A stretch of 64,000 nucleotides of DNA from NCBI GenBank assembly GCA_902774285.1, contig CACYHO010000001.1, forward strand, positions 73,303 through 137,302, written 5' to 3'. Position 1 is the first letter of the stretch. The number at the start of each line of letters is the position of its first letter. Below, piece by piece: positions 6,838-62,073 of this stretch. The notes beneath the pieces are model-generated. The model did no database searches, was not told where the DNA came from, and was given only the letters and a program-made list of their open reading frames with translations. This DNA is from an uncultured Pseudomonadota bacterium (GTDB taxonomy: Bacteria; Pseudomonadota; Alphaproteobacteria; Rs-D84). A program made the translations under genes and the position numbers.

Positions 6838-8175
6838 ATGGAAAAAGACATGAAGAACATAGTTATTGTCGGTCGTCCAAATACTGGCAAATCGACACTT
6901 TTTAATGGATTAACAAATTCACGCGATGCACTGGTTCACGATCGCCCAGGTGTTACACGTGACGTTATTTCTGGAAAAATTCCAAACCGTCCATGGACTG
7001 TATATGATACTGCTGGTCTTGAAAATGAAAAATCCGGCATTGCGCATAATTCAACAGACATGGCAATAAAAACTATTGAAAACGCTGATGCTATTTTATT
7101 TGTGGTAGATGGTCGTGTTGGATTGAACCCTATGGATTTAGAATGGGCAAAATTAGTCCATAAAAAAAGCAAAGCGCCCGCCCTGCTTTTGATAAACAAA
7201 TCAGAATCTGCAAAAAGATTATCTGATGTTCATGATTTTTACAAATTGGGATTTGGTGAACCATTGTTAATATCAGCAGAACATAAACGCGGTTTTGATG
7301 AAGTCTACGAATTTATGGATAAAATTTCCGGTACAGAAAATACAGAAGAAGAAACCGAAGATAAAACAATTAAGATTGCCGTTCTTGGACAACCTAACGT
7401 TGGAAAATCTACATTTGTAAATCGTGTATTGGGCGAACAAAGACAAATCGTTATGGATGCCCCAGGAATTACACGCGATACAGTTAAAATTCCAACACGT
7501 TTTTATGGTCGTGATATTGTTATTATGGATACAGCAGGCCTTCGTAGAAAAGCTGGTGTCAAAGATGACGTAGAAACATTATCTGCATTAAAATCATTGG
7601 ATGCTATTGAAAAATCAGATATTGTTATTTTGATAGTGGACGCAACAAAGAATATTGAAAATCAGGCGCTTGGGATTGCTTCCCGTGTATATGATGCTGG
7701 CAAAATTTTATGTGTAGCCCTTAATAAATGGGATTTGGTTGAAGAAGCAGAACGTGATGAAAAACTTTTAAAACTAAAACACCAATTTACAAATTCTTTC
7801 CATCAAATTATAAAGCCTTTGATATTGGCTATATCTGCAGAAAAAGGCACAGGCGTTCAAAATCTTTTCAAAAGAATTTATGAACAATGGGATATTTCTA
7901 ACACGGATGCCCCAACAAGTTTGATTAACCGCATAATTGAAAAATTAGTGGCAGAACGTCAACCACCTATGTCACGTCTTAAACGTCCAATGAAAATTAA
8001 ATTTGCGCGTCAGACTGGACACCATCCTGTAAAGATCACTATCAATGTTGGTGGCGCATCAGATATTCCAGAATCTTATACGCGTTATCTGCGACGTGGT
8101 ATCGCAACGGCATTACATATGGAACATTTACCAATTATTATTGAATACAAAAAAGAAGAAAATCCGTTTGATTAA
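6838..8175 (+). CDS. der: Ribosome-associated GTPase Der (EngA)
   Basis: Two tandem GTPase domains (GRPNTGKST and GQPNVGKST, DTAG twice, NKSE/NKWD) plus a KH-like C-terminus. The ATG at 6838 (or 6850) is preferred over the TTG at 6814. Confidence 0.93.
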   Translation: MEKDMKNIVIVGRPNTGKSTLFNGLTNSRDALVHDRPGVTRDVISGKIPNRPWTVYDTAGLENEKSGIAHNSTDMAIKTIENADAILFVVDGRVGLNPMDLEWAKLVHKKSKAPALLLINKSESAKRLSDVHDFYKLGFGEPLLISAEHKRGFDEVYEFMDKISGTENTEEETEDKTIKIAVLGQPNVGKSTFVNRVLGEQRQIVMDAPGITRDTVKIPTRFYGRDIVIMDTAGLRRKAGVKDDVETLSALKSLDAIEKSDIVILIVDATKNIENQALGIASRVYDAGKILCVALNKWDLVEEAERDEKLLKLKHQFTNSFHQIIKPLILAISAEKGTGVQNLFKRIYEQWDISNTDAPTSLINRIIEKLVAERQPPMSRLKRPMKIKFARQTGHHPVKITINVGGASDIPESYTRYLRRGIATALHMEHLPIIIEYKKEENPFD

Positions 8176-8198
8176 AAAACCGCCTGTACGGCGGTTTT
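8176..8198. terminator. Bidirectional terminator
   Basis: A-run, CCGCC (8180-8184), loop TGTAC, GGCGG (8190-8194), TTTT. It lies between der and the convergent hemolysin-III gene. Confidence 0.6.
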
Positions 8199-8199
8199 A

Positions 8200-8976
8200 T
8201 TATGCTATACATTTTGTTGCAAAATCTATGATTGAACCGTAAAGGACAGAGAAAAAGAAACACACACTGCCCCCAATCACGAACAAATGCCAAAGTGCGT
8301 GCGCGAACTTCATACGGCGCCACAAATAGAATATAACACCAACAGAATAAGACAAACCACCAGCTAATAAAAACCACATACCACGTGCGGAAATTGTTTG
8401 AATCATCGCAGGTAATATCCAAAGCAACGCCCATCCCATAACCAAATACAATGCAACCATCCATTTTGGTTGTTTATGCGGGCTGATTATTTTCATAACT
8501 GCACCAAATATAACTATGGCCCACAATATACCAAACATGGTCCAACCCAGCGCAGTATGACCACAGCGATTCAAATTTACCAATAAAAACGGGGTATAAG
8601 TTCCAGCAATCAACGCATATATTGCGATAGTGTCCCACACTTCAAAAAAACATTCGCATCTATCACCGATTGTTGCATGACACATTGTTGAACCGAAATA
8701 CAAAGTGAACATTGTTGCACCAAATATAGAACATGCAACCGTTGCCCAAACATTATGATGAACCACTGCGAAAGCCACCAATAAACACAATGCAGCAATT
8801 GCCAAACCAATTCCAATACCATGTGTTAAAATATTGATTGCTTCTTCTGCATGAGTACTTGGGCGTTCCCAACGAAATAAACCTGTTGCTTGTAATACTT
8901 TCAATAACTTTGACGCGTGTTTATCTTTCTTTACCGCACGCAATTTCTGCTTGATAACTTTTTTTGTCTTTGTCAT
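8200..8976 (-). CDS. Hemolysin III / PAQR family channel protein
   Basis: Seven-TM protein with INILTHGIG near TM1 and conserved His residues (CHATI, HALWHLFV), typical of the HlyIII/YqfA family. Confidence 0.85.
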   Translation of the reverse strand: MTKTKKVIKQKLRAVKKDKHASKLLKVLQATGLFRWERPSTHAEEAINILTHGIGIGLAIAALCLLVAFAVVHHNVWATVACSIFGATMFTLYFGSTMCHATIGDRCECFFEVWDTIAIYALIAGTYTPFLLVNLNRCGHTALGWTMFGILWAIVIFGAVMKIISPHKQPKWMVALYLVMGWALLWILPAMIQTISARGMWFLLAGGLSYSVGVIFYLWRRMKFAHALWHLFVIGGSVCFFFSVLYGSIIDFATKCIA

Positions 8977-51976: not shown

Positions 51977-52000
51977 ACCGCCCGATTGGGCGGTTTTTTT
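51977..52000. terminator. Bidirectional rho-independent terminator
   Basis: ACCGCCC (51977-51983), loop GATT, GGGCGGT (51988-51994), with an A-run before and T7 after. Confidence 0.8.
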
Positions 52001-53557
52001 ACTCTTTTCTGTCTGGATATTTTCCATCGATAAGATTCTTGCGAACAATATGATGTTTTACCTTTTGTGTACTGGTCATTGGTAAATCTTCTGTTGTCAT
52101 CGCAAAATGGGTCACCCATTTATAAGATGCAACCTTTTTATTTTGTTCGGCAATTTCTTTTGCCAACTTATCTATGGTCATATCTTTATCAACACTGAAC
52201 ACACCATAGGCAACTGTTTTATCGCCAACCTTGTGTTCAAATACTGCGACATTTTTTACACCTGGGATTTCAATGAATAATCCTTCCAATTCGTCAGGAT
52301 AAACATTTTTACCACTGTCCAAAACAATCACTTGTTTTTTACGTCCGGCAAAATGCAATTCGCCATTTTTATCCATGTACATCATATCGCCTGTGTTAAA
52401 CCAACCGTCTTGATCAAAGACTTCTGCATTTACTTCGTCATTATTCAAATAACCATTGAATACCTGGTGTCCACGAAGCCATAACACACCAACGCCATTT
52501 TCATCTTTATCACGAATTTGACATTCATTATTAGATGTTGGTGCACCAATTGAATACGCCAATCTTTTATTTGTTGGTTTTGAAATACAGATTGGTCCAA
52601 CAGTTTCTGTCAAACCATAACCCTGGATAAATGCCATACCCAATGATTCATAGAAATTTTCTACTTCTGGTTTTGTTGCAGCACCGCCAGCAATCAATAA
52701 TTTAGCACGTCCACCAAAAACACTTAAAATTGGTTCTTGGACTTTGCGAACGAAAAATTCAAGTCCCATATCTTTCAATGTTTTTTGGTTTCTTAAAATA
52801 AATGATGCAACGCGCCATTTACCTTGTTCTTTCATTGTTGTAACAATTTTGTTACGGAACAATTCCCAAACACGTGGCACAGCCGGAATAACATGTGGTT
52901 GGAATTTTTTGAAATCGTCCAAAATATATTTCGGATTAACTGTTGGTTGCAAAACCAATGATGCACCATAATGAACAGTTGCCAAAATACCAATCGCAAA
53001 ACCAAAGATGTGATAAAGTGGCAAAAATCCATACATAACATCACCAGAATGGAAATAATCGCACATTCTGTTAAATTAAAATGTGTTAATGGTACAACCT
53101 TTGGTGTTCCTGTTGAACCAGACGTGAACGACATTGTCGCAACGTCTGTTGATTCAGAAGGGAAAGGTCTTAAATCATAATCAATATCACCATCTTTCTT
53201 TGTTATATCATAAAACTTGAATTGTTTTGTTTTATAAAAGAAAGAAGGTTCTGCGCAAACAAATTTACACCCAGCAATTTCGCACATTTTATCGTATTCA
53301 ATCGGTGTAAGATTTGTATCCAACATTAATGCTGTTGCACCCAAATACCATATAGCAAACAATGTTAATGGAAACTGAGGCAAATTGTGTGATAACACAC
53401 CAATAATATCGCCATGTTTCACACCTGCTTTGTTAAGTGTTGATGCGCGTGCACGTACCTGTTCCAAGAATTCGGAATAAGTAACATTTTCACGGACCAG
53501 GAATAAATTTTCTGGCCATTGATTAACTGCATTTTCTAACTTTTGATACATATTCAT
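51999..53557 (-). pseudogene. Frameshifted long-chain acyl-CoA synthetase paralogue (copy 3)
   Basis: The N-terminal ORF (53557 down to about 53070, ...SFTSGSTGTPKVVPLTHFNLTE) and the C-terminal ORF (53066-51999, CDYFHSGDVMYGFLPLYH...) are collinear with the two intact neighbours but in different frames. The segment between the NL and MYGF landmarks is also about 7 aa shorter. Confidence 0.65.
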
Positions 53558-53581
53558 GTTATACCTACCTTTGTATCTTTA

Positions 53582-55162
53582 TTATTCATGTCTTAAAGTG
53601 TATTTACCATCAATCAACCATTGACGAACAACATGGTGTTTGATTTTTTGTGTGCTTGTAACTGGCAAATCATCAGTTGTCATCGCAAAGTGTGTTACCC
53701 ATTTATAAGAAGCAACTTTTTTATTTGCATTTGCAACTGCGGCTGCCAATTTTTCCATTGTCATATCTGATTCAACACTGAATACACCATATGCAACAGT
53801 TTTACCATTTACTTCGTGTTCAAACACAGCGACACTTTTTACACCTGGAATTTCAATAAATAAACCTTCTAGTTCATCAGGATAAACATTTTTACCAGAA
53901 TCTAAAACAATCACTTGTTTTTTACGTCCGGCAAAATGCAATTCGCCATTTTTATCCATTGATACCAAATCGCCAGTACAGAACCAACCTTCTTTATCAA
54001 AGGCTTCTTTGTTTGCTTCCTCATTATTCAAATAACCACCAAAGATTTGTTTACCCTTGACCCATAACATACCGATACCATTTTCATCTTTGTTACGAAT
54101 TTGAATTTCTGTATCACCCATTGGTGCACCAAAGGCATACGCAACACGTTTTTTCAATGGTCTTGAACAACAGATTGGTCCAACAGTTTCTGTCATACCA
54201 TAACCTTGAACAAAAGCCATTCCCAGTTGTGTATAGAATTTTTCAACTTCTGGTTTTGTAGCAGCACCACCGGCAACCAATAATCTTGCACGTCCACCGA
54301 ACACAGAACGAATTTGGTTTAATACTTTGTTAACCAATTTACCCATTCCAAGTGCGCGTAATAATTTTTGGTTATTCATAATAAACGATACCAGCCACCA
54401 TTTCTTTTTAGCACGGACACCTTCAATAATTTTCTTGCGGAAAATTTCCCATAACTTTGGCACAGCAGGTATAACCTGTGGTTTATATTGTGCAAAGTCT
54501 GCCATAATCGCATTTGGATTAATGGTAGATTGTAATAATATACCCATACCAAAATGAAGTGGTGCCAAGAAACCAACCGCAAAACCGAACACATGATAAA
54601 GCGGCAAGAAAGCATAGAACATTTCACCTGGCTTTAACCATTGATTCAAATATTCCAAATTATCAGAACAAGAAACCAAATTAAAGTGTGTTAATGGCAC
54701 AACCTTTGGTGTTCCTGTTGATCCAGATGTGAAAGATAATGTTGCAATATCTTCATCTTTTAATGGATACGGTTTCAAAGATTTATCTGTATTTGTATCT
54801 TCTGTTTCTATATCAAAAAATTTGAAATTTTTTGTTTCAAAGAAAAAAGATTTTTCTGCACATACAAATTTAGCATCTGTAATTTTTGCCATATTGTCAT
54901 ATTCTTCGGAAGTCAAATTTGTATCCAACAATAAAACTTTTGCGCCCAAATACCAGACAGCAAAAAGTGTCATTGGAAACTGTGGTAAATTATGTGATAA
55001 CACACCAATAACATCGCCAGGTTTAACACCCAATTTATGCAAAGTGGTTGCACGTGCTTTTACTAATTCCAGAAATTCTTTAAATGTTACATTTTCACGA
55101 ACCAAAAATATAGTTTCTGGATTTCTTTCTACATTTTTTTCTAACAATTGATACATATTCAT
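53582..55162 (-). CDS. AMP-forming long-chain acyl-CoA synthetase (FAA1/COG1022-like), copy 2
   Basis: SFTSGSTGTPKVV (AMP-binding core), GYGMTE, TGDLV, GRKKQVIVLDSGKNVYPDELE. Confidence 0.85.
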   Translation of the reverse strand: MNMYQLLEKNVERNPETIFLVRENVTFKEFLELVKARATTLHKLGVKPGDVIGVLSHNLPQFPMTLFAVWYLGAKVLLLDTNLTSEEYDNMAKITDAKFVCAEKSFFFETKNFKFFDIETEDTNTDKSLKPYPLKDEDIATLSFTSGSTGTPKVVPLTHFNLVSCSDNLEYLNQWLKPGEMFYAFLPLYHVFGFAVGFLAPLHFGMGILLQSTINPNAIMADFAQYKPQVIPAVPKLWEIFRKKIIEGVRAKKKWWLVSFIMNNQKLLRALGMGKLVNKVLNQIRSVFGGRARLLVAGGAATKPEVEKFYTQLGMAFVQGYGMTETVGPICCSRPLKKRVAYAFGAPMGDTEIQIRNKDENGIGMLWVKGKQIFGGYLNNEEANKEAFDKEGWFCTGDLVSMDKNGELHFAGRKKQVIVLDSGKNVYPDELEGLFIEIPGVKSVAVFEHEVNGKTVAYGVFSVESDMTMEKLAAAVANANKKVASYKWVTHFAMTTDDLPVTSTQKIKHHVVRQWLIDGKYTLRHE

Positions 55163-55173
55163 AATTCTGTTCC

Positions 55174-56766
55174 TTACCTTAATATATTTTCCGTATTATT
55201 TGGATATTTGCCATCTATTAAATTCTGACGAACCATATGATGCTTTACCTTTTGCGTACTTGTTACAGGTAAATCTTCCGTTGTCATGGCAAAATGTGTC
55301 ACCCATTTATAAGGTGCAACCTTGCGATTTGCCAGCGCAATCTGCGCCCCCAATTTAACAAGTGTTGTCCCTTTTTCAACCTGTAATACGGCATAAGTTA
55401 CTGTTTTATCTTTGATTTTATGTTCAAACACAGCAACATTTTTAACACCATCCATTTCCATGAATAACGCTTCCAGTTCGTCTGGATAAACATTTTTACC
55501 ACTGTCCAAAACAATTACTTGTTTTTTACGTCCGGCAAAATGATATTGTTTATACTTATCCAAATAAACAAGGTCCCCCGTATTAAACCAACCATCTTTA
55601 TCAAAAGATTCATCATTGGCTTCTTTGTTATTCAAATAACCTTTGAAGATATTTGGACCACGAACCCACAATGTTCCAATACCTTTTTCATCGGCATCAC
55701 GAATAGTGCATTCTGAACAACCAATTGGTGTCCCAAACGCAAATGGAACACGATGTTTTGCTGGACGTGAACAACAGAAAGGCCCAACCGTTTCAGTCAT
55801 GCCATAGCCCTGAACAAAAGTAATACCCAAAGATTCATAGAATTTTTCAACCTCTGGCTTTGTAGCGGCACCACCAGCAATCATAAGATTTACACGACCA
55901 CCAAAAATATCACGCAAAGGTTTTTGGACTTTCTTTACCAGTTTTGATAAACCAATCGCATTTAAAAACTTTTGATGTTTAAGCACGAAAGATACAATCC
56001 ACCACATATGTTTTTCTTTGGCGCCTTCTATAATCTTGTTACGAAAAACTTCGTAAAGACGTGGCACTGCAGGAATACAATGCGGCTTATATACTTTGAA
56101 ATCTTCCAAAATATTGCGCGGATTAATTGTAGGCTGTAACAATATTCCCATATGGAAATACATTGGTGCCAAAATACCAGCTGCAAAACCAAAAATATGA
56201 TAAAGCGGTAAAAATCCGTACATTATTTCATTTTTGTGAATCCAATCGCCCATATCTGCATAATAATCTGAAGAATTTTTCAAATTACCATGTGTTAATG
56301 GAACAACCTTTGGATTGCCAGTAGATCCAGATGTGAAAGATAGTGTTGCAATATCTTCTGAATCCAATTCAGCAGGTTTTAATTTTGCATCTGCTTTTTC
56401 ATCTGCTGATTGTATATCAAAGAATTTGAAACCTTTTGCATCATAGAAAAATGATTTTTCAGCGCATACAAATTTACACTTTACCAATTTGGTCATATTG
56501 TCATATTCAAAAGGTGTTAAATTTGTATCCAACAAAAGAACCGTTCCACCAAGGTACCATATTGCGAAAAGAGTCAATGGAAATTCTGGTATATTATGCG
56601 CCAACAAACCAACAACATCACCTGATTTAACCCCGGCCTTGTGTAATGTAGTTGCCCGCGCATGAATTAATTTCAAAGCTTCCTTGAATGTGATTTTTTC
56701 GCGTACCAGATAGAAAGCATTTGGCGATTCTTTCGCCACTTGCTTAAACACTTGATACATATTCAT
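55174..56766 (-). CDS. AMP-forming long-chain acyl-CoA synthetase (FAA1/COG1022-like), copy 1
   Basis: SFTSGSTGNPKVV, GYGMTE, TGDLV, GRKKQVIVLDSGKNVYPDELE. It lies 11 nt upstream of copy 2. Confidence 0.85.
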   Translation of the reverse strand: MNMYQVFKQVAKESPNAFYLVREKITFKEALKLIHARATTLHKAGVKSGDVVGLLAHNIPEFPLTLFAIWYLGGTVLLLDTNLTPFEYDNMTKLVKCKFVCAEKSFFYDAKGFKFFDIQSADEKADAKLKPAELDSEDIATLSFTSGSTGNPKVVPLTHGNLKNSSDYYADMGDWIHKNEIMYGFLPLYHIFGFAAGILAPMYFHMGILLQPTINPRNILEDFKVYKPHCIPAVPRLYEVFRNKIIEGAKEKHMWWIVSFVLKHQKFLNAIGLSKLVKKVQKPLRDIFGGRVNLMIAGGAATKPEVEKFYESLGITFVQGYGMTETVGPFCCSRPAKHRVPFAFGTPIGCSECTIRDADEKGIGTLWVRGPNIFKGYLNNKEANDESFDKDGWFNTGDLVYLDKYKQYHFAGRKKQVIVLDSGKNVYPDELEALFMEMDGVKNVAVFEHKIKDKTVTYAVLQVEKGTTLVKLGAQIALANRKVAPYKWVTHFAMTTEDLPVTSTQKVKHHMVRQNLIDGKYPNNTENILR

Positions 56767-56836: not shown

Positions 56837-57610
56837 ATGAAAATACTTACTTTAAATATCAATTCAATTCGCGCACATATTGAAAGTTTTATGGATATTT
56901 TGCGTAAAAATGAATATGACACTATATTGGTCCAAGAATTAAAGGTTGAAAACGCCAATTTTCCATATAATTTATTGGACGAATACGGATATAATATCAA
57001 GGTTTTTGGCCAAAAATCTTGGAACGGTGTTGCAACTTTTTCAAAATATTCCATCGAAGATGTCACAATGGGCATGCCAACATACCCAGATATTAATTCA
57101 AGATTCTTGGAAAGCGTGATTGATGGTCGTGTTCGCCTGATAAATGTATATATGCCAAATGGCGATTGTATTGAATCACCAAAGTTTCCATATAAACTGG
57201 ATTGGATGCGTGCATTTACACAATATATATCACAATACATCGACAGCGAAGAACCGGTTATAATCGCCGGCGATTATAATGTAGCAGTAGAAGACCGTGA
57301 TATTTGGAATCCAAAAAATTATATTGGGTCTTCTATATCTGCACCAGCGGCACGTGATATCATGCAACAATGGTTGGATGCCGGCTGGGTTGACGCATGG
57401 CGCGAATTACACCCGGACGACATAGATTACACATGGTATGGTTATCGTGGTCGCGATACAGTCGGCAACAAACAGGGACTTCGCTTAGACTATTTCCTTT
57501 GTAATAAAACCGCAGCCAAAATGATTAAAAACTGTGAAATAGATATCGAACCAAGATTGGCCAACAAACCAACCGATCATTGTGGTTTAATGTTGGAATT
57601 AAAAGATTAA
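56837..57610 (+). CDS. xthA: Exodeoxyribonuclease III
   Basis: MKILTLNINSIRA, LVQELK, NVYMPNG, AGDYNV, WYGYRG..., LRLDYF and PTDHCGL are EEP-family Xth motifs. Confidence 0.92.
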   Translation: MKILTLNINSIRAHIESFMDILRKNEYDTILVQELKVENANFPYNLLDEYGYNIKVFGQKSWNGVATFSKYSIEDVTMGMPTYPDINSRFLESVIDGRVRLINVYMPNGDCIESPKFPYKLDWMRAFTQYISQYIDSEEPVIIAGDYNVAVEDRDIWNPKNYIGSSISAPAARDIMQQWLDAGWVDAWRELHPDDIDYTWYGYRGRDTVGNKQGLRLDYFLCNKTAAKMIKNCEIDIEPRLANKPTDHCGLMLELKD

Positions 57611-58401
57611 TCATTCAGACATTCTGGGACACTGTCATTACATATTAAATATTCAACATTGTCTATCGTCACATGAAATCCCTTTGACATACCTTCGGAC
57701 ATTTTTGGGAAAGTATTTGAATTCATATCTCGCGCAACTGCATTTGCCGAATATATACCATTAGGGTGACCAATGTATAATCTGTGTATAGTTGGATGTG
57801 CAGGTTGTTGGTGCATGTATAAAATATCTTCACCAACATGTAATTTTCGACCACATTGTGATTCCAACCACATACCAGCCGGAGCAAATGGATGGTTGCT
57901 CGGACACTCTATAAGTCCCTGTGGGGCTGTTTCGTTAAATGTAAGTTGTCCACCCGGACAATAATGGTCATTTAAGCATTTTCTACACTCGTCAATATTT
58001 GCCGGTAAATAATATCCAGGATTACAATTATGGACATTAGGTGTAAAGGTTGCGGTTATATTTGCAGAATTATTATATGCTCTTAGGAAATCGTTTTTAC
58101 AACCATTGGCTATATTTCCTGTGATTTGAACCTTGAATTTATTACCTTGGTCAACATATTCATTAAAACTGAAAGTTCCACCATTGCAATCATAAATATC
58201 AGGACACACCACACAACCATCATTATTTGCCGGAACATAATATCCGGAATTACATTGATATTGACTTGGGGTAAAGGTTGCTAATAAAAAAGTGTCATTA
58301 TTCAAACCAGAAGAACAACCATGTGGAATGTTTGACATAATCAAATCGTCCGCAAATGCGGGTATTGATATTATTAAAAAAATCAAAAATAATTTTTTCA
58401 T
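57607..58401 (-). CDS. Secreted Cys-rich protein with two internal repeats (furin/VSP/ephrin-receptor-like CxxGYY...CxxC modules)
   Basis: Signal peptide MKKLFLIFLIISIPAFA-DD. The repeats are TFTPSQYQCNSGYYVPANNDGCVVCPDIYDCNGGTFSFNE and TFTPNVHNCNPGYYLPANIDECRKCLNDHYCPGGQLTFNE. Confidence 0.7.
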   Translation of the reverse strand: MKKLFLIFLIISIPAFADDLIMSNIPHGCSSGLNNDTFLLATFTPSQYQCNSGYYVPANNDGCVVCPDIYDCNGGTFSFNEYVDQGNKFKVQITGNIANGCKNDFLRAYNNSANITATFTPNVHNCNPGYYLPANIDECRKCLNDHYCPGGQLTFNETAPQGLIECPSNHPFAPAGMWLESQCGRKLHVGEDILYMHQQPAHPTIHRLYIGHPNGIYSANAVARDMNSNTFPKMSEGMSKGFHVTIDNVEYLICNDSVPECLND

Positions 58402-58424
58402 TTTTTGTTATGTTTCCAGAACAT
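58398..58424 (-). CDS. Candidate 8-codon leader peptide (uORF) MFWKHNKK
   Basis: ATG at 58424-58422 lies 4 nt after GAGGAG. Its TGA (58400-58398) overlaps the ATG (58401-58399) of the Cys-rich gene, which has no SD of its own. Confidence 0.35.
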   Translation of the reverse strand: MFWKHNKK

Positions 58425-58547
58425 AGTTCTCCTCTGGCTAGAAGAGTACGGCGTCAGCCGAGAGGTGTCGCAATTACATAATTTATTTTTGGGCGACACC
58501 CCGTCACTTTGTGACACCCCTATAGCCAGAGGGGAACTTTTACTCCG
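58425..58547 (-). promoter_or_regulatory. G+C-rich nested-hairpin intercistronic element
   Basis: The outer 10-bp stem pairs 58431-58440 (cctctggcta) with 58523-58532 (tagccagagg). The inner 8-bp stem pairs 58464-58471 (ggtgtcgc) with 58493-58500 (gcgacacc) around a 21-nt AT-rich loop. There are small extra hairpins (gtcac ttt gtgac, cggc gtca gccg). Confidence 0.55.
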
Positions 58548-59303
58548 TCACAACACTGGGCCAGCTATAAATTGACCAGTGCCTTGGTTGTAATAAAATT
58601 TAGCTTCTACTTTGTCGAACAAACAAGGTATATTGTCTTGATCGAGAACAGGGATAAAATCACGAACAAGAGCGTCATTTTCGTAAATTTGTACAAAATA
58701 CATTTTTATTTTTGCGTATTCCATTGCACTGAATCTATTGCTCGTAGCAAACAAAAAGTAAGAGTATATTGAAGAAGGAGGACTTGTGTTTTTGCTTTCT
58801 GTTGTTCCATTGATGTTTAAGGTGAAAATATTGCTATTTTGTGTCATCTCTAGAGTATAAACTGTGTTTACAGATATTGGTGTTTCTAAAGCACCAGAAA
58901 GTGATGAATGATAAATAGAGACAAAGCCATTAGTTCTTATATATGGTATAAAATAATAACTTGGTTGAGCCCCTGCAATCGATTGACCAGCACTTACATT
59001 TGTGTATTCATATTTTATAATAACGCGGTAATTATTTTGATTTGAAAATTTAAATCCTGTATCAATATATTGTGTTCCTGTACTTTCTAAATATTCGATT
59101 GGTGTATAGTCTGACATTTTCCATCCTGTAAAAGTATAACCATATTTTGTTGGTGGGGTGGATGGGATAATTAAATCACTATCAATTACACATGTTGAAT
59201 TTTGATATGTTGTTCCGTCATAATTTTTCCAATATAAATTTATAGTATCTGCACATACCGTATTACAGAACAGTAATGATAATAATATTAAAAGCCGTTT
59301 CAT
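58548..59303 (-). CDS. Secreted protein: Listeria-Bacteroides (Flg_new) repeat plus C-terminal jelly-roll/lectin-like domain
   Basis: Signal peptide MKRLLILLSLLFCNTVCA-D. PPTKYGYTFTGWK is the Flg_new signature. EYLESTGTQYIDTGF ... LFDKVEAKFYYNQGTGQFIAGP recalls a family I have seen in phage tail-fibre-like and gut-bacterial surface proteins. Confidence 0.65.
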   Translation of the reverse strand: MKRLLILLSLLFCNTVCADTINLYWKNYDGTTYQNSTCVIDSDLIIPSTPPTKYGYTFTGWKMSDYTPIEYLESTGTQYIDTGFKFSNQNNYRVIIKYEYTNVSAGQSIAGAQPSYYFIPYIRTNGFVSIYHSSLSGALETPISVNTVYTLEMTQNSNIFTLNINGTTESKNTSPPSSIYSYFLFATSNRFSAMEYAKIKMYFVQIYENDALVRDFIPVLDQDNIPCLFDKVEAKFYYNQGTGQFIAGPVL

Positions 59304-59547
59304 TTGATGTTTTCTCCCCGAATGTTAAATAAAAAGACCGTCACAAAGGGCGGTCAGGGAGTTCCTAATCACTAAATTACTGATTCCGTGGTCTTTCAGT
59401 TTCCCGTGTTTTATAACCAACGGCTCCCCGACCATAAAGTGTCAGGGATGATAACGGTGCAAAAAACACCGATAACATCATTTTAACGATGCTTTCGCAC
59501 CGAATTTAGTGGACTAGGAAAGTCCAAAACCCAATCCCTTGGATTCA
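59304..59547 (-). promoter_or_regulatory. Long structured 5' leader (riboswitch- or attenuator-like) of the 58548-59303 gene
   Basis: On the minus strand, a 10-bp helix GGUCGGGGAG (59433-59424) / CUCCCUGACC (59361-59352) closes two hairpins (59423-59404 and 59385-59367). There is a competing upstream UCCCUGAC (59448-59441), a GACCG/CGGUC hairpin plus U-run (59355-59327), and the SD GGGGAG (59319-59314). Confidence 0.5.
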
Positions 59548-59553
59548 AAAATC

Positions 59554-59582
59554 ATTATAAAATACAGGTTATCAAATGTAAA
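59554..59582 (-). promoter_or_regulatory. Near-consensus sigma70 promoter
   Basis: Minus strand: TTTACA (59582-59577), 17-nt spacer, TATAAT (59559-59554). It starts 11 nt downstream of the addB stop. Confidence 0.55.
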
Positions 59583-59592
59583 CAGAAAAAAC

Positions 59593-62073
59593 TTAATCAT
59601 CCACGCGGGCTAAATCATCATATTCATGATATTTGGCACCAACACTGTCGCGGTATTCATATTCGGCAACTTTGTCTGTGCTGTATTGCCCGAATAATTC
59701 GCGAACCTTTTGCACAGATGTATCTATCATTTCTTGTGCAATTTCATCGCTGTATTCTATCAATTCTGGATTTCCATTTTTTAATTGTAAAAATTGTATT
59801 ATCGGTGTGATTGAAACATCGTACATTTTAAGCGGAAAACCATTGTTTTGCATTATAAATGCTTCCAATGGTAATTGTGGCATTGTGCCGTCCAATAATT
59901 GTTTTTTTGTTGGTGCAGATCCTGTTTTTATGTCCATAACCACACCGTCCCATATAATATCTGCACGCGCACGAACATTGCGCCCGGCAATATTTACTGA
60001 GCCAAGAACCTCTTTATACTTAATCGATTTATTCTTAAAGAATTCTTCGACAAACGGTGCGATTTCACAAAATCTTTTATGCCAAAAATAAAATAAAATT
60101 GAATTATCTGGTAATACTTGCTTTGCACGTATATCCATTTCATCTATTAATTTTTTCGCATTAAAATCTTTTGCGTTTTCAATTACATCATGAACCAAGA
60201 TTCCAAAATTACGTGCATCTGGCAAAACCCAATAATCATCTTTTTTGCGCAATTTCAAAATATGTTTTACATAAAATGCATACGGATTATGAATTAACAA
60301 TTCAATTTCTGTGACATAAACATCACTTTTATCAATTGGTGGTGTTGGCGCGGAATAATCAAGTGGTTTGTATGGCACATCGTCGTCCGCCCTAACCTGT
60401 TTTAAAATTTCACTATCTATTTCTATATCACCAACCGCGACACGAACACGTGAAAGAAAACGTGATTCTGTTGTTAATGTTCCGCCCATCTGTTTTGAAC
60501 GCAACCAATAGACTTCCGTCGCACAAGATAAATTCATAAAATCAAGCGCCATCAAAGATACCTTCCTATTTGGTGATGGCAATCCGATTTCGTTTGCTAT
60601 ATTACGTGGCAACCAGGCATTTTCATAACCAAGTCCCGGGAACATTCCTTCATTAAGGCCTGTTAAAATAATAACATCTGCGGTTTGCATACGCGATTCA
60701 ATTGTTCCCAATACACACACCTTGCAATCTTCATTTTTTATCGGACGTATTGATACAGAACCAATTGCATCTGCAATAAATGCACGCGCATCAAAAATAT
60801 TTAATACTATTTCGTTTGCCCTTAAAATATCTGCGGTTTCTTTTATAGCATTCCAAATTGGAATATAGCTTTCGTTTTCTATTGTGAAACTTGGTTGAAA
60901 ATTATACCCATTTTCAGAATCAACAAATGCAACCAACATATTAAATAAATTGTAATCACTTTGCGCATACAATTTTTCAAATTCTTTTTGATTATTTTCA
61001 ATCCAATCATCAAATAAATTTAATATCGCACGTCCTGTTTCACTCATTGCCCCGGACAAACCAGACGAAAAGTCTGCATCAATGCCTAACTTGGTCATTT
61101 CTGACTTGATACGCTGATTCGCAGCGGCATCTGGTGTAATAATTAAAACAGATTTATTTTCAGACACTGCACGTTTTGCAATTTGTGTTGCAGTTAACGC
61201 TTCTTCGCTTTCACGTGCACATTCAATCAATTTACAATTATTTAATTTGCTATCAACATGTTCACCAGTATTACCAAAGGCGATATTCATAATATCTATA
61301 TCACTTTTACCAACATCAATTGTTTGAACATCATCAACAGACAAACCCAACTTTTTCAAAAATAAATATTCGCTTTTGTATGGATTAGTATCCAATTCAA
61401 AATCTTTTGTTTCGCCATCAATTTTCCCAGATAAAATTATTTTACCATTTGGTATACGCGCGACATATTTCATTAAATCTGCCGTGGCCGGCACAGAAGC
61501 AGTTGATCCACAAACAATCACACAATCATATTTATCCAAATGATTTTTCCATGCACGAATATCGGCATTTCTTTTTTGTGTTGTTGTAGGTCTGTCATTT
61601 GGTAATTGTTTCAAAATATCCAAAATGCGTGCTTTATTTTGAAAATGTGTTGCATATTTATCATCTATTAATTCGGCCCAATTAACATCCGTGATTTGAA
61701 CACCTTCGTTTTCCATATAATCTTGCATACGAATAAAATCATGCGCCAAAGGCAATGCCGTCGCTATGTTTCTGACATTTGCATCCATTGATAAAAGTTT
61801 AGATAAAATAATCACGCGTTCGCGATTTGATATTGTGTCTGTGCAAACATCTTCTTCGTCTTCTGATCCTTCGCCCAATGGAACAAGGTTTGGCAAAATA
61901 ACCGCATGCCCTACTTTTTCAACAATGAATTTTTCAACACTTCGTATAGCACGACGCGATGGCAAGAAAATTAAAACACGTGAAAAATCATTGATATACT
62001 GCGCAATCTGTCCCCACAGCGCATCTAGCACACGCATGGGATTCGATACATTAAAAATATTATTATTTGACAC
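59593..62073 (-). CDS. addB: Double-strand break repair protein AddB (alphaproteobacterial type)
   Basis: N-terminal RVLIFLPSRRAIRSVEKF, a C-terminal PD-(D/E)XK nuclease (GRNVRARADIIWDGVVMDIKTGSAPTKKQL...PQLPLEA) and a DDLARV tail. Confidence 0.8.
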   Translation of the reverse strand: MSNNNIFNVSNPMRVLDALWGQIAQYINDFSRVLIFLPSRRAIRSVEKFIVEKVGHAVILPNLVPLGEGSEDEEDVCTDTISNRERVIILSKLLSMDANVRNIATALPLAHDFIRMQDYMENEGVQITDVNWAELIDDKYATHFQNKARILDILKQLPNDRPTTTQKRNADIRAWKNHLDKYDCVIVCGSTASVPATADLMKYVARIPNGKIILSGKIDGETKDFELDTNPYKSEYLFLKKLGLSVDDVQTIDVGKSDIDIMNIAFGNTGEHVDSKLNNCKLIECARESEEALTATQIAKRAVSENKSVLIITPDAAANQRIKSEMTKLGIDADFSSGLSGAMSETGRAILNLFDDWIENNQKEFEKLYAQSDYNLFNMLVAFVDSENGYNFQPSFTIENESYIPIWNAIKETADILRANEIVLNIFDARAFIADAIGSVSIRPIKNEDCKVCVLGTIESRMQTADVIILTGLNEGMFPGLGYENAWLPRNIANEIGLPSPNRKVSLMALDFMNLSCATEVYWLRSKQMGGTLTTESRFLSRVRVAVGDIEIDSEILKQVRADDDVPYKPLDYSAPTPPIDKSDVYVTEIELLIHNPYAFYVKHILKLRKKDDYWVLPDARNFGILVHDVIENAKDFNAKKLIDEMDIRAKQVLPDNSILFYFWHKRFCEIAPFVEEFFKNKSIKYKEVLGSVNIAGRNVRARADIIWDGVVMDIKTGSAPTKKQLLDGTMPQLPLEAFIMQNNGFPLKMYDVSITPIIQFLQLKNGNPELIEYSDEIAQEMIDTSVQKVRELFGQYSTDKVAEYEYRDSVGAKYHEYDDLARVDD

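Follow-up and report, generated by a model that had tools for sequence, protein, structure and literature searches.

A 64-kb window of DNA from Candidatus Enterousia (order Rs-D84), the whole stretch analysed here, carries two genes for secreted proteins, A and B, between an addB-like nuclease gene and xthA, and these genes stand behind a conserved, structured leader RNA. Candidatus Enterousia and its order are uncultured gut bacteria with genomes of less than 1 Mb (PMC12306168). All coordinates are positions within the window, and all features of the addB-xthA interval described below lie on the minus strand. Following that strand from the addB-like gene (59593-62073, 826 amino acids), one meets a sigma-70-type promoter (59554..59582), the leader of about 215 nt (59329..59547), gene A (58548-59303, 251 amino acids, with the Shine-Dalgarno (SD) sequence GGGGAG at 59314-59319), an A-B spacer of 146 nt (58402-58547) and gene B (57607-58401, 264 amino acids). 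As had been noted from the letters alone, gene B overlaps the end of the convergent xthA (exodeoxyribonuclease III; 56837-57610, plus strand) by 4 nt (57607-57610). We think it probable, if by no means certain, that this interval represents a single copy of a modular cassette that combines a promoter of its own, a two-state leader, secreted-protein genes and a separately inserted palindromic element, IGR2, which occupies the spacer. The cassette is a multi-copy one, present several times per Candidatus Enterousia genome, and it is swappable.

The evidence begins with the leader. Scanning one genome per species for an exact pattern turned up 17 loci, each of them from Candidatus Enterousia or uncultured gut or rumen Alphaproteobacteria, and with further copies added from other loci the collection came to 21 full-length copies (alignment A4) and 5 shorter variants, from Enterousia-like genomes of the gut and rumen. 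The window leader is matched by nhmmer with an E-value of 9e-59 and is a single copy in 64 kb: blastn, nhmmer and the covariance model with its filters off gave no further copy in the window, the next-best matches scoring at most 21.5 bits and falling at intergenic terminators. The second-best covariance-model match (21.5 bits, 8171-8255, minus strand) lies between convergent genes and is probably a plain terminator hairpin. Over 245 nt, the region upstream of gene A is 72-89% identical to the regions before other modules, whose A proteins are only 45-65% identical, and the leader folds better than its shuffled versions (z = -3.7). The structured leader of about 245 nt that the sequence-only reading had described is thus borne out as a conserved RNA element; its label of G+C-rich is true only in relative terms, at 39% against 35% for the window.

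Two mutually exclusive folds of the leader are conserved. In fold 1 the P1 hairpin (59527-59546) is followed by the 5' strand of a long-range closing helix (59503-59526), the P3 hairpin with a GNRA-type loop (59487-59502), P4 (59447-59479), the P5 hairpin (59425-59448), P6 (59386-59423), the 3' strand of the closing helix (59356-59378) and an intrinsic terminator (59331..59355), in which the stem GACCG(C)..CGGUC runs into UUUUUAUUU. Tested with all of these parts, the long-range helix counted as three, fold 1 has 95.8% of cells paired across the 21 distinct copies of A4. Changes on both sides occur in 26 of its 60 pairs, against 14±1.8 in shuffles (none of 500 reaches 26) and 7-11 in controls with slid partners; the leader copies are mutually related, so that the shuffles overstate the significance, a weakness from which the slid-partner controls are free. 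Several positions of the long-range helix show four different Watson-Crick pair types, and the terminator stem is kept with compensatory changes in the 21 copies. Conserved G-U pairs, such as columns 58:77 in 20 of 21 copies and 128:150 in 19 of 21, show that the strand that folds is the strand that is transcribed.

Fold 2 consists of a local 5' hairpin, a 3' hairpin and a helix of 9-10 bp, GGUYGGGGAG : CUCCCYGACC, and is 97% paired. We take this helix for a putative antiterminator because it uses the 3' strand of P5 together with the 5' arm of the terminator. In the window it pairs GGUCGGGGAG (59424-59433) with CUCCCUGACC (59353-59362), closing a three-way junction (59344..59433) like that of the small RNA (sRNA) family sRNA-Xcc1; the terminator's 5' arm overlaps its 3' strand, and its GGUCGGGG segment alternatively pairs with CCCUGAC in P5. 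When the 5 short-type leaders are added the helix is 98.4% paired, with both-sided changes in 4 of 10 pairs. This covariation comes from the five short-type sequences; within the main type, the pattern used to collect the copies had itself fixed part of the invariance of P5 and the antiterminator. The three switch segments vary as a set and exist in three versions: CCCUGAC/GGUCGGGG/CCCUGACC, CUCCAAC/GGUUGGAG/CUCCAACC and CUCCUGC/GGCGGGAG/CUCCUGCC. This is the pattern that one expects of a terminator/antiterminator switch. The sequence-only reading had observed that both ribosome-binding regions could be masked by complementary segments upstream; as the main logic of the leader such sequestration is not supported, and the feature that evolution has kept is the alternative between terminator and antiterminator. 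A leader peptide, as in classical attenuation, was also considered and rejected: a frame with an ATG start passes through P4-P6 in the window and in L003 (one of the collected loci, which are numbered in this form), but no SD sequence goes with it, and other copies have GTG or ATA in place of the ATG or no start at all.

The promoter matches the consensus at 11 of 12 positions (-35 TTTACA, 17-nt spacer, -10 TATAAT), is the best match in the region and begins 10 nt past the addB stop codon, rather than the 11 nt first given. In nearly all leader copies a -10-like hexamer ends 6-10 nt upstream of P1. The block AGTTTTTTCTGTTTACATTT...TATAAT, noted in the window at 59583-59592, also precedes the leaders of L008, L024 (4653-4700) and L035 (7482-7530), and it is near-identical between cassettes that sit at different places in the genome, from which it would seem that the mobile unit starts a few bases past the stop codon of the upstream gene. 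One might suppose instead that the non-coding structures here are incidental, nothing more than plain terminators and hairpins formed by chance where intergenic DNA is poorly conserved, and it is true that matches to promoter and terminator consensus sequences here, where the DNA is AT-rich, are no commoner than in shuffles. That explanation is extremely improbable, being refuted already by covariation far above the controls; the leader is also better conserved across species than the A proteins, by the identities given above, and IGR2 is 78-86% identical to elements in other species.

Under the cassette reading, the promoter would set the start of transcription at the first helix of the leader. 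In fold 1 the long-range helix would join the 5' and 3' regions and close a multi-helix junction, with GGUCGGGGAG held in P5, and the intrinsic terminator could then form and stop transcription before gene A. In fold 2 the 5' region would fold on itself, leaving GGUCGGGGAG to pair with CUCCCUGACC and to close the sRNA-Xcc1-like junction; this pairing would take up the 5' arm of the terminator, and RNA polymerase would read on into A and B. A protein, a second RNA or a small ligand might be the signal that tips the leader towards one fold or the other.

What stands downstream of the leaders is varied. Every leader is preceded by a promoter of its own and closes with an intrinsic terminator (a stem and a U-tract). 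Wherever a copy comes with enough sequence, an SD-bearing gene on the same strand begins 16-41 nt past the terminator, or 126-161 nt past it when IGR2 intervenes. Most of these genes encode envelope or secreted proteins. Besides A-B pairs they include lipoproteins and further proteins with signal peptides, an outer-membrane beta-barrel protein with LrgA/LrgB, a SpoU methylase, a GT2 glycosyltransferase and a protein like C5 methyltransferases. One of the collected loci has leaders of both types: the first gene of L006 has a long-type leader, and a short-type leader without P4 (L006:1050-1400, minus strand) stands between lrgB upstream and a glycosyltransferase-like gene downstream. A phage or plasmid origin was rejected, as neither blastn of phage and plasmid collections nor an exact-pattern search of viral contigs gave a match.

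Among known RNAs, the leader's nearest relative is sRNA-Xcc1 (RF02221), at a distance. An Rfam search of the whole window in gathering mode gave no match, and E-value mode on 2.6 kb gave noise alone, because the filters hid the RF02221 match, which surfaced only when short stretches were searched (241 nt for the window). The window leader then scores 36.1 bits (E 5e-5) over model positions 1-87, below the gathering threshold of 53, and four relatives score 41.2, 33.5, 32.8 and 32.4 bits, the last being the short-type leader of L006. In all five copies the alignments span model positions 1-87 in the same register, and the helices covary in our own alignment. The domain lies about 115 nt past the predicted start of transcription. 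By the Rfam criterion the leader is not a member of sRNA-Xcc1; the resemblance is one of structure and of context (multiple copies, variable DNA, a position upstream of genes). T-box, cobalamin, c-di-GMP, c-di-AMP and other known riboswitches were dismissed, since none gave an Rfam match at E≤10. Checking both non-coding regions against Rfam, as had been proposed, therefore yields a likeness for part of the leader and no family at threshold, and the earlier statement that the module maps to no described system is nearly correct: nothing exceeds an Rfam threshold, but the 3' half of the leader does match sRNA-Xcc1 below it.

This likeness bears on another account of the leader, namely that it is a multi-copy, free-standing gene for a trans-acting sRNA and that the downstream genes are mere neighbours or are reached by leaky read-through. 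Its own promoter and intrinsic terminator bracket the leader as they would an sRNA gene, and its 3' domain resembles an RNA described from Northern blots as an 88-nt species in Xanthomonas (PMC2996969) and present in seven copies in a Xylella genome (PMC12189769). Free sRNA genes, however, would not be expected to have a same-strand, SD-bearing gene 16-41 nt past the U-tract in every copy with enough sequence and no promoter between, and a conserved alternative pairing that overlaps the terminator arm would have no obvious purpose in them. Members of RF02221 itself have also been reported to stand directly upstream of genes: of symE, in a widespread integron cassette (bioRxiv 10.1101/2025.06.18.660453), and of an ORF6N-domain gene, in APSE phages (bioRxiv 10.1101/2020.03.17.996009). 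We consider the free sRNA fairly unlikely.

That the cassette can be exchanged is seen at the addB-xthA gap itself. In four relatives (L035-L038), whose AddB proteins are 74-89% identical to that of the window, the order rsmI-yihA-addB-[slot]-xthA-acyl-CoA ligase genes is kept, and the gap is a variable slot that holds different genes in different relatives. The closest of them by AddB (L035, 89% identical) has the same promoter and leader, a flipped and diverged IGR2 before A, and overlapping A and B; L036 has an unrelated 257-aa protein and lacks the leader; L037 has a 138-aa membrane protein with its own promoter; and L038 has the leader with a different secreted protein. Comparing the interval across relatives for presence or absence, as the sequence-only reading had suggested, thus supports a swappable cassette. 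The same comparison overturns the expectation, taken from other alphaproteobacteria, that addA should follow addB here: addA adjoins addB in 0 of the 4 relatives, and the separation, named beforehand as the finding that would speak against this expectation, is the norm. No addA-like open reading frame (ORF) was found anywhere in the 64-kb window. AddB matches TIGR02786 (E 2e-90) with 304 bits, below the NCBIfam cut-off of 486, and is about 200 residues short of the alphaproteobacterial model, and the AddAB system in this lineage may be reduced or reorganised; as the slot shows, gene-order expectations from model alphaproteobacteria fail here. On the other flank, XthA exceeds the cut-off of TIGR00195 with 220 bits. 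Beyond xthA (51999-56766, minus strand) lie tandem paralogous AMP-binding (acyl-CoA ligase-like) genes of 526 and 530 amino acids, with further copies upstream, and this array is kept after xthA in L036-L038.

The spacer between A and B is the second structured part of the interval. IGR2 (58426..58537, with an extra 3' hairpin reaching to about 58412) is a palindromic four-way-junction element whose 23-bp outer stem is formed by two arms, each palindromic in itself (CCCCUCUGGCUAUAGGGG / CUCUUCUAGCCAGAGGAG), and encloses three hairpins. The spacer fold scores z = -7.95 against shuffles, and the two strands of IGR2 fold about equally well. The arms and the central stem are almost invariant among copies, and covariation is confined to the small hairpins. 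Neither blastn nor a search for the arms found IGR2 elsewhere in the window.

In other genomes the element changes both its place and its orientation. It has the same sense as the genes in L001 (two copies), L023 and L024 (two copies), standing between the leader terminator and gene A in L001 (twice), L023 and L024 and between A and B in L024; with the metagenome scan included, it is antisense to leader and gene in at least six loci (L026, L027, L030, L031, L032, L035). In L028 and L034 it is circularly permuted, with the arms joined by a 27-nt linker and the central stem open, and still folds with z of -7.6 to -9.2. The diverged spacer variant of L023 aligned poorly in MAFFT, and its fold was checked by single-sequence folding. 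The copies adjoin leader cassettes except in L028, L029 and L034. The permuted copies lie at L028:8346-8490 and L034:1431-1580 (minus strand), the latter just downstream of a tRNA gene and a terminator and away from any leader. In L033 (1035-1510, minus strand) a full IGR2 stands upstream of the leader promoter and a truncated half, made of the 5' arm and one hairpin, past the leader terminator, which suggests that inserted copies decay. Since L035 has the window's promoter and leader together with a flipped, diverged IGR2 before A, the element has moved independently of the cassette. Judged from these comparisons, IGR2 is an element separate from the cassette, evidently inserted between A and B in the window's lineage.

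The sequence-only reading had seen in the spacer a dedicated riboregulator, and one can spell this out as a strand-specific RNA that controls gene B through a nested hairpin masking the SD sequence and through a regulatory upstream ORF (uORF). The features are there as described: the fold is very stable, the SD sequence of the uORF (GAGGAG, 58429-58434) lies inside the outer stem, and the uORF of 8 codons (MFWKHNKK; ATG 58422-58424, TGA 58398-58400, 58398..58434 with its SD sequence) ends with a stop codon that overlaps the gene B ATG (58399-58401). The G+C-richness of the spacer is again relative, at 47%, and the uORF is not conserved, its ATG being missing from all other copies: L001 and L023 have CTG in its place, and the L024 spacer has no uORF. 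With IGR2 antisense in at least six loci, before A rather than B in others and permuted in two, with both strands folding about equally well and with most A-B pairs having no spacer at all, such a regulator is very unlikely; orientation and position have largely refuted it already. If IGR2 acts as RNA within the cassette, its 23-bp stem is probably a processing or stabilising hairpin, while the SD sequence and the uORF ending on the start codon of B, which IGR2 supplies, may restore translational coupling.

Free orientation also invites the idea that IGR2 works as DNA, as a recombination site (an inversion switch or an attC-like junction) that shuffles or flips surface-protein cassettes. Both orientations and a permuted form occur, each arm resembles a recombinase site with 7-bp inverted half-sites around a 4-bp core, cassettes are found at different loci, the related sRNA-Xcc1 family occurs in integron cassettes (bioRxiv 10.1101/2025.06.18.660453), and an integrase lies between two modules in L024. 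Flipped copies, however, are flipped as wholes, including the outer half-sites and the asymmetric 3' hairpin, and while a crossover within the arms should leave chimeric arms, none turned up. Nor did any one locus occur in both states, and no integron integrase was seen beside any copy. We therefore regard a recombination site as unlikely. Two particular forms of it were tried. A simple inversion switch is disfavoured by the composition of the arms, and the two orientations are seen at different loci. An integron attC was rejected: it would end RYYYAAC...GTTRRRY, where IGR2 ends GTTCCCC...GGAGAAC, and the window copy has no integrase gene on either side. The integrase of L024, 1.5 kb away, is of phage type and 505 amino acids long. 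It is accompanied by a C5 DNA methylase and a Rep-like gene (L024:7298-11604) between two A-B modules, one behind a long-type leader, the other behind a leader of the short type and with two IGR2 copies; the stretch has the look of a mobile element integrated where cassettes are plentiful.

The proteins agree with the earlier claim of a self-contained cassette that encodes secreted products, in that two signal-peptide proteins follow a promoter and a structured leader of their own. Protein A has 794 homologues and protein B at least 150, nearly all of them unnamed proteins of uncultured gut or rumen Alphaproteobacteria. The genome of the window has at least two more A-B pairs, one beside lplA and one directly upstream of virB8-virB9-virB10, and at least four are known from a different species (GCA_045648665.1). 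Overlap of A and B is the rule in most of the pairs. At the second of these sites (L003:6001-12178) a leader-A-B module stands directly upstream of, and on the same strand as, virB8, virB9 (CagX) and virB10 (TrbI), an arrangement that hints at a link between the secreted A and B proteins and a type IV secretion system.

In protein A the signal peptide is joined by a small beta unit resembling Flg_new and, at the C-terminus, by a jelly-roll. The secreted jelly-roll protein proposed earlier is confirmed by the signal peptide and the predicted fold; its Flg_new assignment is weaker, as the match to PF09479 (E 9.5e-4) reaches 19.7 bits against a cut-off of 27, and several homologues carry a precomputed PF09479 match. 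The AlphaFold2 model has a predicted local distance difference test (pLDDT) score of 86.8, and above 90 in residues 65-251. Foldseek matches of the jelly-roll are neurexin LNS, pentraxins, laminin G and a Bacteroides carbohydrate-binding protein, with E-values of 8e-6 to 1e-3 and target template modelling scores of 0.5-0.64. Like the LamG/LNS/pentraxin (concanavalin A-like lectin) proteins, the C-terminal 185 residues form a jelly-roll predicted with high confidence; unlike LamG proteins, to which it is only 8-16% identical, protein A has no Pfam LamG match. Protein B was rightly called a secreted, cysteine-rich repeat protein: it has a signal peptide, conserved cysteines, two cysteine-rich repeats and a C-terminal beta domain (pLDDT 77.5). 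The structural search proposed for both proteins was thus productive for A, and for B gave no match in the PDB with E<2, only a faint similarity to the cysteine-rich domains of TNFR proteins. We infer adhesin or surface-interaction roles for A and B.

Several points weigh against the cassette reading and hold its probability where we have put it, in addition to the kinship of the leader copies and the effect of the search pattern described above. It is from sequence that we deduce termination, read-through and the start of transcription, and likewise the direction of the switch, its effector and what the spacer and the uORF do. The genes behind the leaders share no metabolic theme that would indicate a metabolite ligand. 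The RF02221 match is below threshold, and the members of that family are described as free sRNAs of 88 nt, in keeping with action in trans. For IGR2 as an inserted element, no target-site duplication was seen, no linked transposase or recombinase was identified, no search aimed at RAYT (REP-associated tyrosine transposase; REP, repetitive extragenic palindromic) having been made, and the count of copies covers the 64-kb window and the collected loci rather than whole genomes.

What the interval offers, in the first place, is a well-supported family of apparently two-state leader RNAs, found before varied envelope genes in a gut lineage with reduced genomes and distantly linked to sRNA-Xcc1; in the second, it offers an unusual palindromic element that tolerates inversion and circular permutation. 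A two-state leader before many envelope and secreted genes suggests control of the cell surface at the level of RNA, and the leader RNA can be synthesised and probed without culturing the organism. It is possible, although we think it doubtful, that the leader is a new riboswitch-like class that directly senses a signal from gut or host and switches on surface and secreted proteins in a reduced-genome bacterium that is probably dependent on a host or partner, with sRNA-Xcc1 as the core of a cis-acting switch, and that IGR2, separately, is a new structured nucleic-acid element. The sub-threshold link suggests that sRNA-Xcc1, which numerous annotations of pathogens and phages give as a trans-acting sRNA, may form the antiterminator core of such a switch, and if this were true those annotations would be read differently. 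The case for IGR2 as a new kind of element lies in its tolerance of inversion and circular permutation, which is rarely combined with strong conservation of sequence across species; its possible roles include that of a recombination site and that of a catalytic or processing RNA.

Among known systems, IGR2 comes nearest to REPIN/REP and to elements like MITEs (miniature inverted-repeat transposable elements), of which Rickettsia palindromic elements and Neisseria Correia elements are examples. Its inverted arms, each palindromic, its hairpin of about 110 nt, its extragenic position and its either orientation agree with the definition of REPINs (PMC3116915, PMC3337134), as does the fact that its presence and position differ between close relatives. 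It has the two inverted palindromic units in a long hairpin by which a REPIN is recognised; in place of many dispersed copies, it has one in 64 kb, and nearly all known copies lie beside cassettes. It further departs from REPINs in ending with GTTC and lacking the GTAG/CGTC tag (PMC3733652), in its inner four-way junction and circularly permuted form, and in having no identified RAYT, for which no search was made.

Like the leader, sRNA-Xcc1 has a three-way junction whose closing helix is G/C-rich (GGYCGGGG...CCCCGRCC). Of its two hairpins, the inner one carries an AUAcAAuAC-type internal loop and a GNRA-like loop, the second is short, and a C-rich/U tail follows. It too is multi-copy, resides in mobile or variable DNA and often stands directly upstream of a small gene (bioRxiv 10.1101/2025.06.18.660453; PMC12189769; bioRxiv 10.1101/2020.03.17.996009). 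Here, by contrast, the junction makes up no more than the 3' part of the leader, which spans about 215 nt and has in addition a 5' domain (P1, the long-range helix and P3-P5) and a separate terminator, and the host is an alphaproteobacterium rather than a gamma- or betaproteobacterium, with no integron and with secreted proteins rather than toxins downstream.

The other comparison is with attenuating riboswitches. Unlike the known ones, the leader has no full-length Rfam match, and its downstream genes offer no metabolic clue. What it shares with them is a position in the 5' untranslated region, a complex conserved fold closed by a long-range helix whose 3' strand overlaps the expression platform, an antiterminator and an intrinsic terminator that exclude each other, and the occurrence of a single RNA class before many genes. 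The features by which an attenuation leader is recognised are accordingly present in the window and its relatives: a covarying structure in the 5' untranslated region, a terminator with a mutually exclusive antiterminator, and a same-strand gene downstream in many contexts.

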